Below are positions 2,457 through 15,967 of a stretch of 64,000 nucleotides of DNA, one piece after another. The notes beneath the pieces were generated by a model. That model did no database searches and was not told the DNA's origin. It saw nothing but the letters and a program-made list of their open reading frames with translations. The translations under genes and the position numbers were made by a program. Source of the stretch: a virus. The stretch covers positions 106,573 through 170,572 of the IMG/VR virus record IMGVR_UViG_3300032132_000001; one strand, 5' to 3'. Each line of letters opens with the position of its first letter. Within the stretch, counting starts at the first letter, position 1.

Positions 2457-3098
2457 ATGCTCAATGTAATCTGTGTCAAGTGGGGCACCAAGTACAACCA
2501 CGATTACGTCAATAAGCTGTACAATATGACCCAGCGAAGGCTCAATTACGAGCATCGCTTCATCTGCCTCACCGACAACCCTGCCGGCATAGACCCTATA
2601 ATCGAGTCTTTGCCATTCCCGGAAGACGATACGGGATGGTGGAACAAACTAAACTTGTTTCGACCTTATCTCCACGACATCGAAGGTACTATCCTGTATA
2701 TGGATCTAGATGTCGTGCTTGTGGATAGTATCGACCCGTTGATCAACTACAAGGGCCGAAACTTCTGCATAATCGACGACTGGCTTCCACAGTTTCATCA
2801 TAATTCAAGTGTGATGCGCTTTGAGTTCGGCTCTCAACCACACATATGGACCAACTACGAAGAAAAGAAAGGGCTAATCCGCCAGAACTATAGAGGAGAT
2901 CAAGAATGGATCTCCAGACATGTACCAGATGCTACTACCTGGCCAGAAGGGTGGTGCTTCTCTTACAAATGGGGTGCCAAGCTCAAGGCGCTGAACAAAC
3001 CAGGTGTGGTGCCAGCCAACGGTAAGATTGGCGTATTTGCAGGAAGGCCAAAACAGGACGAAGTATCTGATCTCTGGGTGAAGCGTAACTGGAAGTAG
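2457..3098 (+). CDS. glycosyltransferase-like protein (DxD motif, nucleotide-sugar transferase fold)
   Basis: 213 aa. 'YMDLDVVLVD' DxD motif. N-terminal VICVKWGTKY is typical of sugar transferases. Confidence 0.45.
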   Translation: MLNVICVKWGTKYNHDYVNKLYNMTQRRLNYEHRFICLTDNPAGIDPIIESLPFPEDDTGWWNKLNLFRPYLHDIEGTILYMDLDVVLVDSIDPLINYKGRNFCIIDDWLPQFHHNSSVMRFEFGSQPHIWTNYEEKKGLIRQNYRGDQEWISRHVPDATTWPEGWCFSYKWGAKLKALNKPGVVPANGKIGVFAGRPKQDEVSDLWVKRNWK

Positions 3099-3576: not shown

Positions 3577-4382
3577 ATTATTTCCCCTGCTCTATCGAAC
3601 CCGTAAAGCCAGATATTTTCCATAGCTTTCGGGTTGAAATCTAGCACGTCGCCCAGGTGCCTCTCTGGGCTGATAATGATCAATTCCCTATTCCTACACA
3701 TTTGGGGTAGGTCGTTGCGCGCGATCTCGGATACCATAATATCTACGGTGCGCATCAAAATATCGATCAGGCCCGAAGGGTTTCTCTCTAGATGCTTGGT
3801 CTCAAGCGGGCTGTTGATTACTACTATGATCCGGTCAATGTGACGATCCCAAAGTACCGGTGCAACCGGGATAGTATCAATCAGACCTCCATCCCCGTAG
3901 TCGTCACCGTGGATGTTGACCAGAGGCATGATAGCTGGCATAGAGGCAGACGCTAGGACGTACTTCTCCCAGTTGTCCATATTCTCCATGGACGACTCGA
4001 TCCTTGCTACCATACCAGTTCTCATATTGGTAGCGGTTACGACGGCTTTCCGCCCGTTCACGTAAGCCTGTTGCAGCGCTTCTTTATCAGAGTAGCGTTC
4101 GATTAGGTTGGCGAGAGGGGAAGTATCAACGAGAGATCCGTGGACGAAAGCAGAGATTAGATCTCTATCTCTCAAAATGTCAGTATCTTCTATTCCACCT
4201 CGATAGACGTCATTTATTACTTCGATGTTGTCCAGGAGAATCGGACCTGCCATCAATGCTCCGGTCGAGGTCCCCGACACTATATCCCATCTGAAATCGT
4301 ACTGGGACATCAACCGGTAGATCGCACCCACCGCGAATGCCCCATTCCTTCCGCCTCCGCTGATTACTAATGCGTCGCTCAT
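3564..4382 (-). CDS. patatin-like phospholipase
   Basis: N-terminal GGGxxG oxyanion motif (ISGGGRNGAF), GTSTG serine lipase motif, and DGG catalytic Asp motif. Confidence 0.7.
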   Translation of the reverse strand: MSDALVISGGGRNGAFAVGAIYRLMSQYDFRWDIVSGTSTGALMAGPILLDNIEVINDVYRGGIEDTDILRDRDLISAFVHGSLVDTSPLANLIERYSDKEALQQAYVNGRKAVVTATNMRTGMVARIESSMENMDNWEKYVLASASMPAIMPLVNIHGDDYGDGGLIDTIPVAPVLWDRHIDRIIVVINSPLETKHLERNPSGLIDILMRTVDIMVSEIARNDLPQMCRNRELIIISPERHLGDVLDFNPKAMENIWLYGFDRAGEIMEAL

Positions 4383-12900: not shown

Positions 12901-12971
12901 AGGGAGGGTGCTGGGCATAGACCGGTCTCCAAAGCTAGTCCTCGCGGGTTCGATTCCCGTCCTCCCTGCCA
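12901..12971 (+). tRNA. atypical tRNA-like gene, possible Trp (CTCCAAA loop, anticodon CCA) with imperfect anticodon stem and short D-arm
   Basis: Perfect acceptor AGGGAGG/CCTCCCT, canonical T-arm GCGGG-TTCGATT-CCCGT, CCA encoded. The core does not fold canonically. Confidence 0.35.
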
Positions 12972-12978
12972 TACAATT

Positions 12979-13049
12979 AGGGGGCGGTCGGTGCCCACGC
13001 AGACCATCGAAAGTCCGTAAGCCAGGTTCGACTCCTGGGCCCCCTGCCA
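12979..13049 (+). tRNA. atypical tRNA-like gene, anticodon not assignable
   Basis: Perfect acceptor AGGGGGC/GCCCCCT, T-arm CCAGG-TTCGACT-CCTGG, CCA encoded. No canonical anticodon arm. Confidence 0.3.
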
Positions 13050-13128: not shown

Positions 13129-13205
13129 GCACCCGTAGCTCAGTGGACTAGAGCATCTCGCTACGGACGAGGGGGTCGTAGGTTCGAATCCTACCGGGTG
13201 TGCCA
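13129..13205 (+). tRNA. tRNA-Arg(ACG)
   Basis: Acceptor GCACCCG/CGGGTGT, anticodon loop CTACGGA, CCA encoded. Confidence 0.75.
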
Positions 13206-13221
13206 CAAAGGAGGCAGTACC

Positions 13222-13373
13222 ATGGCAAAGCAGGCGAAGGGTCACCAGAAGAGGAAGTGTGAGCGTTGTGGTGGGACCGGGAGGACCTGGACCCAGATCA
13301 TCCCACTCAAAGGCAAGAAGAAGATGGTTTCTGCACCATGCGATAAGTGCGGCGTATCTAAGCAGAATGGCTA
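13222..13373 (+). CDS. small zinc-ribbon protein (50 aa), strong SD AAAGGAGG
   Basis: MAKQAKGHQKRKCERCGGTG...CDKCGVSKQNG. Read by hand; absent from the ORF track because it is under 60 aa. Confidence 0.5.
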
Positions 13374-13495
13374 GAAAATACGAGAAAGCGTTCTTCAAGA
13401 AGAGGTGGCTAACCACCATCTATGTTGATGGCGATATAGAGTCTGCTATCTCTGGTCTAGAATCTGCAAAAGAAAAAGAATCAAGGACGCAATAA
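13366..13495 (+). CDS. hypothetical small protein
   Basis: MARKYEKAFFKKRW... The internal start of ORF 13259..13495, overlapping the upstream gene by 8 nt. Confidence 0.25.
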
Positions 13496-13508
13496 GCCTA
13501 TTGCGTCG
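13487..13508. terminator. stem-loop GACGCAAT-aagcct-ATTGCGTC
   Basis: 8-bp perfect inverted repeat following the small-gene cluster. Confidence 0.3.
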
Positions 13509-13544
13509 TCACGGGTATTCAGTAGTCAAGAAAAAGGGAAAGAA

Positions 13545-13826
13545 ATGAAACTCCGTACATTTCTATCATTCACCGCTGGGATGATGTCAGCTTCGGCCTT
13601 GGCCTTTGCTGTCGCGTCCTTCATGGCGGAACCCCATATTGCCTGGCGCTGTCAAGCGACCGCTCTTATCCTCTTAGTCATCTCTTATTTCTGGACTCAC
13701 GAAGCTGTGAGGTTAGAGAAAGAAGAGAAGCGCCCAAAGGGAGCAGACAAAGAGAAGCAGAAGGAGATAGAAGGCGGTTATAAATTCTCAACGGCTCACT
13801 CTGCAGCTCTTAGGAGCAAGCCGTAA
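13545..13826 (+). CDS. small membrane protein (2 TM helices), in frame with the downstream RRF homolog across a single TAA
   Basis: Hydrophobic segments. SD AAGGGAAAG. The stop TAA at 13824 is in the same frame as the RRF-like sequence that follows. Confidence 0.45.
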   Translation: MKLRTFLSFTAGMMSASALAFAVASFMAEPHIAWRCQATALILLVISYFWTHEAVRLEKEEKRPKGADKEKQKEIEGGYKFSTAHSAALRSKP

Positions 13827-14330
13827 GGCAACCTACGGCAGGACCTCGATAAGCCGGTACAACATCTCAAAGATCTATATTCTGGAATCAGCGTAGGGAG
13901 AGCCAATCCGGCTCTCCTCGATGGTGTGAAGGTTGAGTGCTATGATGATCTACTCCCTCTCACCCAAATCGCATATGTGTCGATCCTAGGGCCTGAAATT
14001 CTTCAGGTTATACCTTATGATCGAGCACTCATTGGTGCTATCCGAAGAGGGTTGCACAATTCCAAGCTTCCGCTCAGCCCGACCGTAGAAGGTGATCGGC
14101 TGATCGTCAAGGTCCCGATCCCCGACATAGATGATCGGAAGAAGCTAGAGAAGCACGTCAAGAAGCTCGCTGAGGCTCAACGCGTTGCTATCAGGCAGAT
14201 CCGGCGCAAAGCGAGAAAGGCGGGCGAAAACGAAAAGACCGTTGAAGACCTGGTGAAAGAGTATATTAACAAAATAGACGACCTTCTAGCGAAGAAGGTC
14301 GAAGACCTAAACCCAAAGAGCTTCTTCTGA
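13827..14330 (+). CDS. frr: ribosome recycling factor homolog (frr-like); no canonical start codon before the GTG at 13926
   Basis: Residues align with E. coli RRF (LLDGVKVECYDD ~ LLDGIVVEYYG; AIRQIRRKARK ~ AVRNVRRDAND). The homology continues 33 codons upstream of the annotated start to the TAA. Confidence 0.55.
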   Translation, partial: GNLRQDLDKPVQHLKDLYSGISVGRANPALLDGVKVECYDDLLPLTQIAYVSILGPEILQVIPYDRALIGAIRRGLHNSKLPLSPTVEGDRLIVKVPIPDIDDRKKLEKHVKKLAEAQRVAIRQIRRKARKAGENEKTVEDLVKEYINKIDDLLAKKVEDLNPKSFF

Positions 14331-14650
14331 TGTTTCCTACTCGACCAGATGGGACTACCGAGCAATGGTTAGATGATCAGTTTATTAACGATCATCCCTA
14401 TGCTATGCTCACCAGAAGAGGGAAATTATATGATGTACACAGGCATTGGGGAGAAGATCTAGCAGACCCAAGGAATGAATATGATGCTATATTCTTCGTG
14501 TGCGACGGGATATCCTTCATAGCTGAAGATGATGGTTGCATCGGAGTAGCGGAATGGTCAAAAGTCGAGAAAGCATGGTTCGTCTGGTTCTGGGTAGATA
14601 AACATGGCGAACTAGAATATCTCAACCAACACCTGAGGGAAATACTATGA
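14330..14650 (+). CDS. hypothetical protein
   Basis: 106-aa ORF with an ATGA overlap. Confidence 0.4.
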   Translation: MFPTRPDGTTEQWLDDQFINDHPYAMLTRRGKLYDVHRHWGEDLADPRNEYDAIFFVCDGISFIAEDDGCIGVAEWSKVEKAWFVWFWVDKHGELEYLNQHLREIL

Positions 14651-14949
14651 ACAAATCCTACTTCGGAAATGTCAAGGTCCACCTTACTTGGCTCGTTCTT
14701 GCTACTCTGATGTCCTTCGTGTCCTACACGGTCGGTCAGTTCAAGTACAGCTACTTCGAAAACCTGGCCGACGACGCTACAAAGCAGCTAGTCGAGACCA
14801 AGGAAATTATGGAACGTCAACAGACGACCCTCGTCTCGGCTATCCGTAAGAAGAACCAAGCCGAAGGCCAGCTTGAAGGTCTCAAAGACGACGTAGACAA
14901 CCTCAAACTGCAAATCGAGATGTACAAGAAGCTATTGAAAAAGCAGTAG
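14647..14949 (+). CDS. membrane-anchored coiled-coil protein
   Basis: N-terminal TM helix then coiled-coil. ATGA overlap. Confidence 0.4.
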   Translation: MNKSYFGNVKVHLTWLVLATLMSFVSYTVGQFKYSYFENLADDATKQLVETKEIMERQQTTLVSAIRKKNQAEGQLEGLKDDVDNLKLQIEMYKKLLKKQ

Positions 14950-14962
14950 GCAAACCTAGAAT

Positions 14963-15967
14963 ATGGACGACATTATCGACGACATCGCTTCGCTAATCAC
15001 TGACGACCCAGACGTTGTAAATGAGAAGCGCGCTAAGCCTACAAGGCCCCAGAAAAAGCGCACGCTCAATGAAGACGTCCACACCGTCAAAGGGGAAAGC
15101 CCGAGGGGCGAAGAGAAGCGCAGCCTGATCCAGTATATCCGAGAGGGCAACACCTTTCGGCCGGCTGGCAAGATTGAGCTTCACGAGGAGCTTCCTCCTG
15201 CGTCCTACAATGTTGGGTCGGATATGCAAGGGCCCTTCCTTGAACTATTCCAGCCTGTAACAGATGAGTTGGTCCATTTCGAAGACAGCAAGATGGATTC
15301 TGTCATCAAAGAAGTGGATAAGTTCTGGGGTTTGAAAGAGAACTTCAAGCGCCTTGGGTACCTCCACAACCGTGGTATCCTTCTCCATGGTCCTCCGGGA
15401 ACTGGGAAGACCTGTCTGGTCCACCAAATCACCGAGAGCATGGTAGACAGCGGCGACTTGATCTTCCACGCGAACAACGTCTACGGCCTCAAAAGCGCTC
15501 TAAGCGCTTACCGCTCCGTCGAACCAGAGCGCCGTACGGTGATTGTACTTGAAGATATGGACGAGTATATCGGCCACCAGGAGCGTGCTATGCTCCAGCT
15601 GCTCGATGGCTCAAGCGCGACTGATAATGTGCTCTTCCTGGGTTCTACTAACTACATCAGCAAATTCCCGCCGCGTCTCCTCCGTCCAGGCCGGTTCGAC
15701 AAGAAGGTACACATTGACATGCCGCCGATGAACGGCCGTGCAGCGTACCTTGAACACAAGCTTGGCGAGATTGAAGAAGCTGACGTCATTGAATCTCTAG
15801 CAGAGAAGACAGACGGCTTCAGCTTCGGCCACCTCCGTGAATTGGTGATCGCTGGTTATGCTTTCCAGGAAGACCTGGATAGTACAATCAGTAGATTGCG
15901 GACACTCGATACTGAGTCCTTGCCCTTGCGCGAGGGTAAAGAACACGAGTTGTCCGCGCGTATCTAA
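14963..15967 (+). CDS. AAA+ ATPase carrying the N-terminal leader motif MDDIIDDIASLITDDPDVVNE
   Basis: Walker A GPPGTGKT, Walker B VLEDMDE, second-region-of-homology RPGRFD. The N-terminal 21 aa match the shared motif. Confidence 0.7.
   Translation: MDDIIDDIASLITDDPDVVNEKRAKPTRPQKKRTLNEDVHTVKGESPRGEEKRSLIQYIREGNTFRPAGKIELHEELPPASYNVGSDMQGPFLELFQPVTDELVHFEDSKMDSVIKEVDKFWGLKENFKRLGYLHNRGILLHGPPGTGKTCLVHQITESMVDSGDLIFHANNVYGLKSALSAYRSVEPERRTVIVLEDMDEYIGHQERAMLQLLDGSSATDNVLFLGSTNYISKFPPRLLRPGRFDKKVHIDMPPMNGRAAYLEHKLGEIEEADVIESLAEKTDGFSFGHLRELVIAGYAFQEDLDSTISRLRTLDTESLPLREGKEHELSARI

Follow-up and report, generated by a model that had tools for sequence, protein, structure and literature searches.

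We analyzed a gene for ribosome recycling factor (RRF) in a 64,000-nucleotide stretch of DNA from a huge phage (positions 106,573 to 170,572 of the IMG/VR virus record IMGVR_UViG_3300032132_000001; hereafter, the window). Positions 13827..14330 of its + strand read as an intact and complete RRF gene, 167 codons followed by the stop TGA (14328-14330), which is probably functional. The gene has no start codon in its N-terminal part, and its frame opens at a TAA (13824-13826) that terminates another open reading frame (ORF). RRF frames in a clade of related phage loci also open at the stops of upstream ORFs, with no start between these stops and the called ATG, and with signals around the stops that resemble those of the prfB (RF2) frameshift site. 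We judge the chances to be about even that ribosomes reach the RRF frame, whatever the route, from the stop of the preceding ORF.

The full extent of the gene is indicated by homology and structure prediction. In the 167-residue stop-to-stop translation, Pfam family PF01765 (RRF) matches residues 15-161 (E=1.3e-33; 116.6 bits vs a cut-off of 29.7), covering profile positions 2-152 of 164, and RRFs of the PDB align from query residues 2-7 with E-values down to 1.6e-21. These matches bear out the original prediction, made from the DNA letters without database searches, that RRF homology extends upstream of a GTG at 13926; the alignment behind it (LDKPVQHL... with E. coli MDKCVEAF...) was reproduced by MAFFT. 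An AlphaFold model built on 40 homologues (mean pLDDT 91.9) has the L-shaped two-domain RRF fold, in which an alpha/beta domain follows helix 1 of a three-helix bundle as an insertion. Residues 3-19 form helix alpha-1 (pLDDT ~93), which starts two residues past the TAA; the further helices span residues 101-131 and 136-161, and the beta domain residues 35-95. Foldseek matched the model to crystal and ribosome-bound RRF chains (1IS1, 4V9D and 6ERI) with TM-scores of 0.78-0.81. Family-invariant residues are all present in the alignment (G24, P97, E116, R123, R126 and K157); among them, R123 and R126 correspond to the basic helix 3 residues R129 and R132 of E. coli, and G24, R25 and P28 of the linker are also kept. 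The 167 codons contain no internal stop or frameshift, and codon usage of the 33 start-less codons is coding-like, on par with the rest of the frame. Bacterial RRFs encoded by frr (PF01765; E. coli 1EK8, V. parahaemolyticus 1IS1) have the same two-domain fold and conserved Arg, Gly and Pro positions, whereas the bundle of the window protein is shorter, with ~15 residues fewer at the alpha3-alpha4 tip and 6 fewer at the N-terminus.

What distinguishes the window gene from bacterial and other huge-phage RRF genes is the missing start codon and a frame that opens at the stop of another ORF. The first 33 codons of the frame (13827..13925, +; GNLRQDLDKPVQHLKDLYSGISVGRANPALLDG) encode helix alpha-1 and the GRAxPxLLD motif, as judged by translation, Pfam, alignment and AlphaFold, and contain no in-frame ATG, GTG or TTG; the sole in-frame near-cognate codon is ATC at 13887. 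The earlier observation that the same frame stays open, without these start codons, from the TAA to the GTG is therefore confirmed, and homology supports the assignment of the 33 codons to RRF. Frameshifting into the RRF frame from a start elsewhere was also considered and rejected, since neither of the other two frames near the RRF 5' end contains a canonical start that could be linked to the RRF frame in this way. The GTG selected by the gene caller (13926..13928, +) is most likely a gene-calling artefact: initiation there is not credible because the product would lose helix alpha-1 and the GRANPALLDG linker, and because no Shine-Dalgarno-like sequence precedes the GTG. A CTC further upstream (Leu, query residue 7; 13845..13847, +) aligns with the internal Met13 of E. 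coli RRF. Met is kept in this column in at least 90% of 40 RRFs, mostly ordinary 185-residue proteins in which it is internal. Replacement of Met13 by Leu in the window is a conservative change at a core position; only if translation does not start at codon 13845 is it harmless. A functional gene would make the window a natural ATG knockout and point to entry at the junction.

An exhaustive HMMER search revealed a set of RRFs with called lengths of 155-180 residues, in which Met1 falls in the alignment column of query Leu7 (CTC 13845). In 11 independent related phage loci (L007, L008, L009, L012, L013, L014, L015, L016, L018, L049 and, on a 340-kb IMG/VR phage contig, L141), no start codon occurs in the RRF frame between the called ATG and the stop of a mini-ORF or gene that precedes it, and the frame is open over this whole stretch. 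Ten of the loci together have 0 stops in 89 codons of the upstream stretch in the RRF frame, compared to 3 in 81 and 6 in 79 in the other frames, and L141 adds 8 further open codons. A hidden Markov model of ~96 standard RRFs aligns into the stretch upstream of the called ATG. For example, FSEILLDAEIRM of L049 is comparable with ISDIRKDAEVRM of E. coli (FSEILLDAEIR-M vs ISDIRKDAEVR-M). The length of the upstream stretch tracks that of the alpha3-alpha4 tip (Spearman 0.79, p=0.004, n=11), against which the N-terminus should pack in the helix bundle. L007 and L009 differ by a 9-nt in-frame indel upstream of Met13, and their leader, GGAGAGG...ATGGTGAAYAACTAACAAC, is nearly invariant. A position-specific scoring matrix of standard N-termini gave the upstream stretches -103 in the RRF frame vs -172 and -203 in the other two, N-termini being too variable for these scores to decide. 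Taken from sequence, these data indicate that the RRF N-terminus of the clade is encoded between the leader stop and the called ATG, that this ATG is the internal Met13, and that database proteins of the clade are short by ~4-15 residues; gene callers would thus shorten the short-RRF clade by 4-15 residues and the window RRF by 33. Orthologues with an ordinary ATG had been named in advance as a finding that would count against the original prediction, and an ATG is indeed called at the position of 13845 in the relatives. It does not refute the prediction, as it is the conserved Met13 and homology continues upstream.

The upstream ORFs of the relatives are unrelated in sequence and range from 3 to 145 codons. 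Mini-ORFs of 3-9 codons (encoding MVNN, MTRLN, MKEFN, MMELN, MEKRMN, MIKREN, MRKD, MKN, MMKLTRESK and MSLC, each followed by a stop) have their own Shine-Dalgarno sequence in most loci, whereas such a sequence is mostly missing before the called RRF ATGs. Full-length upstream genes, of 145 codons in L014 and 112 in L141, have the mini-ORF as their in-frame 3' end. These leaders were located at 3960-4010 (L007), 1608-1670 (L009), 296-368 (L008), 268-299 (L012), 2955-3003 (L013), 2935-3003 (L014), 884-922 (L015), 503-570 (L016), 755-817 (L018), 1449-1503 (L141) and, on the minus strand, upstream of 5017 (L049). In 7 of the 11 loci, the distance from a GGAG or GAGG to the last sense codon downstream of it is exactly 3 nt, compared to 1.4% of 4112 control ORF ends; in 8, the RRF frame contains a second copy of the last sense codon that overlaps the stop, compared to 4% of controls. 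The corresponding binomial P values, ~1e-9 and 3e-11, are inflated by common ancestry. The matched codons comprise six cases of AAC-T-AAC, one of AAA-T-AAA (L008) and one of GAC-TA-GAC (L012). The RRF frame is +1 relative to the upstream ORF in nine relatives and +2 in two (L141 was read by hand); in L012, where it is +2, the repeat shifts along with the frame, and in L008 the repeat is kept despite a codon change. Mini-ORFs of any kind occurred in 18 of 106 control loci, which include three short-clade genes misplaced there, and an Asn-stop mini-ORF occurred in one. As far as can be read from these alignments, the clade has a stop-codon junction with prfB-like signals at a frequency far from chance despite shared ancestry. 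Comparison with related phage loci, which the original prediction had proposed as a check, thus supports a link between RRF expression and the TAA, eleven RRF frames likewise opening at an upstream stop. Its suggestion of a nonsense mutation inside a once-continuous membrane-RRF protein is not supported, since RRF homology starts right past the TAA and the upstream ORFs are unrelated.

Two additional candidates were excluded from the clade. L017 has an ordinary ATG 11 codons upstream. The RRF protein P0038 (L139) comes from AT-rich DNA with an in-frame TGA after a normal ATG: at L139 198-260, the ATG and 12 more codons are followed by a TGA three codons before Met13 (MELNPVLDKAIND-TGA-KAD-MAKII...). 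The organism or phage probably reads TGA as sense (genetic code 4 or 25), the database protein being truncated.

In the window, the ORF upstream of RRF (13545..13826, +) starts with ATG and has 93 codons. Sequence and translation confirmed the earlier statement that the TAA closes this ORF in the RRF frame. Its 3' end reads ...AGG AGC AAG CCG TAA (peptide end ...LRSKP), and the frame continues past the TAA as GGC AAC CTA CGG CAG GAC CTC GAT AAG CCG GTA..., remaining open until the TGA at 14328-14330. The ORF had been described as a two-transmembrane protein, and hydropathy indeed showed two moderately hydrophobic segments (~residues 7-27 and 37-51), followed by a charged tail of 38 residues. 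Codon usage is coding-like (log-likelihood ratio +0.23 per codon in its own frame and negative in the other two). A Pfam search of the ORF found no family, no RRF similarity is present in it, no homologue of it was found beside other RRFs, and the window neighbor genes showed no homology with those of the related loci. Its contribution to expression of RRF would be to bring ribosomes to the junction. In one relative, L012, the gene before the RRF leader (150-260) ends in a hydrophobic, membrane-like segment (...IPRWLVVLLLGLAWLLVFS at the C-terminus) and resembles a membrane protein, as the window ORF does; no sequence similarity was detected between the two.

The junction of the window can be aligned with those of the relatives as an in-frame variant. 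A Shine-Dalgarno-like AGGAG lies within the upstream ORF (13812..13816, +), separated by 4 nt from the last sense codon and by 7 nt from the TAA; genes of the window usually have AGGAG or GGAGG at 6-8 nt spacing as their ribosome binding site. The last sense codon (CCG, Pro), the TAA (together 13821..13826, +) and the following G align with the stops of the (mini-)ORFs of the relatives: TAA-GGC-AAC in the window corresponds to TAA-C-GGC-GAC in L016 and L049 and to TAA-A-GGC-GAC in L008. Extended in both directions, the window reads GGAG-CAAG-CCG-TAA-GGC-AAC-CTA, L008 reads GGAG-TCT-AAA-TAA-A-GGC-GAC-TTG, and L016 reads GAGG-TTG-AAC-TAA-C-GGC-GAC-CTG. The translation in the RRF frame is G-[DN]-L in all three, and the alignment of the window with the relatives can be written as GGAG-N3/4-XXX-TAA-(N)-GGC-[GA]AC.

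Two further elements were found near the window TAA. An 8-bp hairpin, GCCGUAaGG-caa-CCUACGGC (13820..13839, +), holds both the CCG and the TAA. Its role is uncertain; it was rejected as a shared stimulatory structure, since its stability is ordinary (z=-1.25) and the relatives lack it. In addition, the hexamer AAGCCG before the TAA (13818-13823) recurs in frame 33 nt downstream (13851-13856; the pair spans 13818..13856, +). An in-frame 6-mer repeat within 11 codons is expected by chance in ~0.3% of cases by our estimate, and this repeat was noticed post hoc. The two copies are a possible take-off and landing pair, and a 33-nt hop between them over the hairpin is conceivable. Such a hop is disfavored because the skipped codons still encode conserved RRF residues (G-N-L and L-D-K).

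Several known systems resemble this arrangement. As in prfB, whose programmed +1 frameshift autoregulates RF2, a stop interrupts the gene for a translation factor close to the 5' end, and the main frame lacks its own start; an internal Shine-Dalgarno-like element is located 3 nt 5' of the last sense codon in 7 of the 11 relatives, which is the prfB spacing (in the window, GGAG ends 4 nt before CCG), and the main frame is +1 in nine relatives, while the window differs, with frame 0 and a 93-codon upstream ORF. The stops are UAA or UAG, never UGA, and the upstream ORF is variable in length and sequence. CCG-U of the window and AAC-U, AAA-U and GAC-U of the relatives offer no cognate +1 re-pairing, unlike the CUU-U type, and the relatives repeat the identical codon at +4 or +5 instead of slipping by +1. 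Moreover, the factor sensed here would not be a reader of stop codons. In infC (IF3), which starts with AUU, use of the defective signal depends on the activity of the factor itself; infC, however, retains a near-cognate start, whereas the window RRF gene has none.

A second resemblance is to stop-hopping and bypassing, as known from synthetic hops and T4 gene 60. Matched codons flank the stop in 8 of the 11 relatives, and in the window the CCG recurs within AAGCCG 33 nt downstream, with the hairpin covering the take-off codon and the stop. In contrast to known hops, those of the relatives would be just +4 or +5 and overlap the stop, and the 33-nt gap of the window encodes conserved RRF residues. 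According to a review, no natural in-frame stop-hop is known, matched-codon stop-hops being known only from synthetic constructs (PMC5009743). The third resemblance is to the 'unscheduled' translation described by the Kaji laboratory, whose geometry is identical to that of the window, i.e., in-frame reading on from a UAA without an initiator. In that work, ribosomes lacking RRF were reported to remain on the UAA and, beginning with the codon after it, to translate downstream sequence in frame, and a nearby Shine-Dalgarno sequence retained ribosomes (PMC9955659). The effect was obtained with engineered constructs, was viewed as an error and was not reproduced in vivo (PMC7538156), whereas here it would be a selected route of expression.

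Among routes of entry from the stop, we have a tentative preference for release of the peptide followed by resumption of decoding. Ribosomes finishing the upstream ORF at the TAA would enter the RRF frame there and resume at GGC 13827. In the first step, the upstream peptide would be released at the TAA; in the second, pairing of 16S rRNA with AGGAG at 13812-13816 would keep the ribosome on the mRNA; and in the third, the ribosome that had not been removed would advance by one codon, staying in frame, to make a free RRF of 167 residues rather than a fusion. Release is placed first because the upstream ORFs of the clade are unrelated and vary from mini-ORFs to full-length genes, because the stop is nearly always the strong UAA, and because such behavior without RRF has been reported by the Kaji laboratory. 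If this event responds to RRF, as we infer, its output would rise whenever recycling or termination capacity is low, a feedback similar to the RF2 frameshift and the IF3 AUU start. It is a rather doubtful possibility that the whole clade, including the window, is expressed only via recoding or restart at the leader-ORF stop as an RRF-sensing feedback loop. In such a device, the Shine-Dalgarno-like anchor would hold the ribosome, the P-site tRNA would re-pair on the codon copy overlapping the stop, and ribosomes that are not promptly recycled would continue into the RRF frame.

A number of observations speak against entry of ribosomes at the stop, or against particular routes. In the window, no matched codon stands beside the stop (CCG vs GGC), and the offset of the RRF frame is 0, compared to +1 or +2 in all 11 relatives. 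Relative to L008 and L016, one base seems to be missing after the window TAA, and loss of 1 nt at this place might just as well have inactivated the gene by breaking a +1 device. Among the relatives, neither the matched codon nor the 3-nt Shine-Dalgarno-like element is present in L141 and L015, L013 lacks only the exact codon match (AAC vs AAA), and the 11 loci share ancestry, with the consequence that the binomial P values overstate significance. The open shared frame of the window is by itself a coincidence of about 1 in 4, because RRF homology begins only ~2-6 codons past the TAA; the true anomaly is the absent start codon rather than the common frame. The best relative, at 42% identity, is too distant to gauge purifying selection after loss of the ATG. 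UAA-G is not among the known leaky stops, and the analogy with prfB would predict recoding before release, i.e., a fusion. Start-independent resumption in vivo is contested: depletion of RRF in E. coli did not raise reporter translation after stop codons in any frame (PMC7538156). For the window locus, the case for entry at the stop is built on sequence and models.

The best of the competing explanations is that the gene was recently disabled. Its ancestor would have used a +1 junction and/or the Met13 ATG, and the loss of one nucleotide, together with the change of ATG to CTC, would have ended expression. This would account for the RRF frame without a start codon, for the missing matched codon and the frame offset unlike that of all 11 relatives, and for the base apparently lost past the TAA in the alignment with L008 and L016. 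A single contig carries the gene: the identical 134-residue product of the GTG start is on record as P0001, encoded on a JGI contig of 395,473 bp. Among the RRF homologues of the indexed search none was close (best identity 42%), and comparison of the DNA at 13200-14700 with 50,697 phage records (GenBank phages) found no similarity. An IMG/VR orthologue search with the window protein and further IMG/VR scans with A6, P0007 and P0011 gave no match, and an exact degenerate RRF pattern had 0 matches in a collection of metagenome contigs that lacks the source contig too; the alignments A2 (used against metagenome contigs) and A7 (used against IMG/VR) are too diverse for pattern searches. Against a disabled gene, the frame has accumulated no stop or frameshift in 167 codons, every invariant residue is kept, pLDDT is 92 including the N-terminus, and codon usage is still coding-like. 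The change from ATG to CTC takes two substitutions and gives a conservative Leu at a hydrophobic core position, and the Shine-Dalgarno-like element and the TAA-GGC register are retained. The RRF ORF shows none of the extra disabling lesions expected of a pseudogene, and we consider recent inactivation somewhat unlikely.

The shared frame of the two ORFs also allows readthrough, or a short in-frame stop-hop, at the TAA before release, which would yield a membrane-anchored RRF of ~260 residues facing the cytoplasm. The charged tail of 38 residues could act as a linker, and its charge fits the cytoplasm. A C-terminal Pro before the stop slows termination, and a Shine-Dalgarno-like element lies close to the window stop. 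The relatives have the Shine-Dalgarno geometry of prfB, which in prfB itself acts before release (PMC12421855). On the other hand, RRF follows ORFs of 3 to 145 codons in the relatives that are unrelated to one another, a reason to think that the upstream peptide does not belong to the protein. Phage or bacterial matches included no membrane-anchored RRF, and the long matches P0013, P0022 and P0047, considered as natural membrane-RRF fusions, look by sequence like eukaryotic organellar precursors and not phage proteins. The UUA anticodon of a suppressor tRNA is absent among the 22 tRNAs of the window and two odd tRNA-like genes described below. TAA is an ordinary stop in the window, ending 28 of 91 long + strand ORFs, and a genetic code with TAA as sense was rejected, as it would fuse many ORFs on both strands. 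The membrane-tethered RRF of the original prediction is not favored, and we regard it as quite unlikely.

Two other explanations are very improbable. Internal initiation, either at GTG 13926 to give 134 residues or at a non-canonical codon in 13827-13925, agrees with the choice of the gene caller and with database protein P0001, and AGGAG would be ~8 nt from CTC 13845 if the hairpin at 13820-13839 forms; yet the GTG has no Shine-Dalgarno-like sequence and its product no helix alpha-1 or GRAxPxLLD segment, the only near-cognate codon (ATC 13887) is internal to helix 1 and the linker, CTC is not known to initiate translation, and the hairpin is not unusual. Finally, an assembly or sequencing error, or a minor variant of a genome that really has a start codon or no TAA, is compatible with a single metagenomic contig without a second copy in the metagenome collection (by the exact degenerate pattern) or IMG/VR, and is weakened by the two base changes required for an ATG at 13845, the location of the site outside a homopolymer, and a junction layout (Shine-Dalgarno-like element, stop and GGC) that agrees with independent assemblies of the relatives.

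The RRF gene is located within a translation-related region of the window, where 22 tRNA genes are interspersed with small ORFs on the + strand (7215-28937); no genes for tRNA-Met, Leu, Val or Asp were found within the window. Two tandem non-canonical tRNA-like genes (12901-12971 and 12979-13049) both have A1-U72, G73 and an encoded CCA end. The first consists of an 8-bp acceptor, a 3-bp D, a 6-bp anticodon and a 4-bp T stem, has the anticodon CCA and matches tRNA-Sec of Rfam weakly (24.6 bits); in the second, the anticodon loop is 6 nt long and contains no clear anticodon, and neither would read UAA. A 58-codon ORF (13198-13374) with two CxxC pairs and a weak DnaJ-type zinc-finger match (E=0.005) starts within the 3' end of tRNA-Arg (13129-13205), and codon usage is poorer in an overlapping alternative ORF (13259-13495). 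A 334-residue ORF (14963-15967) lies just past the RRF region, ahead of tRNA-Ser; the GPPGTGKT Walker A motif in its translation hints at an AAA+ type ATPase. The closest relative of the window RRF (P0007 of L008, 42% identity) is, like the window gene, directly downstream of a tRNA-like sequence, read by eye (L008 222-297). Possibly, phage tRNA clusters regularly include an RRF gene.

The occurrence of RRF in phages is not new. RRF genes have been reported in huge phages (PMC7162821), and one is annotated in Sinorhizobium phage Phosso; the earlier remark that a phage-encoded RRF is rare is thus only partly right. What appears undescribed is the start-less layout coupled to a stop, in frame +1 or +2 in the clade. 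A literature search found no report of frr recoding or autoregulation, and we know of no regulation of RRF synthesis. Resumption after a stop by unrecycled bacterial ribosomes has been disputed for 25 years between the Kaji laboratory and ribosome-profiling work. If the genes described here depend on such an event, they would offer compact natural sequences of ~60 nt in which post-stop resumption can be studied, and the window, where ATG is altogether absent and the UAA and RRF share a frame, would be the cleanest example from nature. With such a device, nature would for the first time be seen to use a stop-hop or start-independent resumption. RRF, with a natural loop that senses it, would then be the third of the translation factors that gauge their own activity via a defective decoding signal, after RF2 (prfB frameshift) and IF3 (AUU start), and the loop would show how huge phages tune the translation cycle of their hosts.

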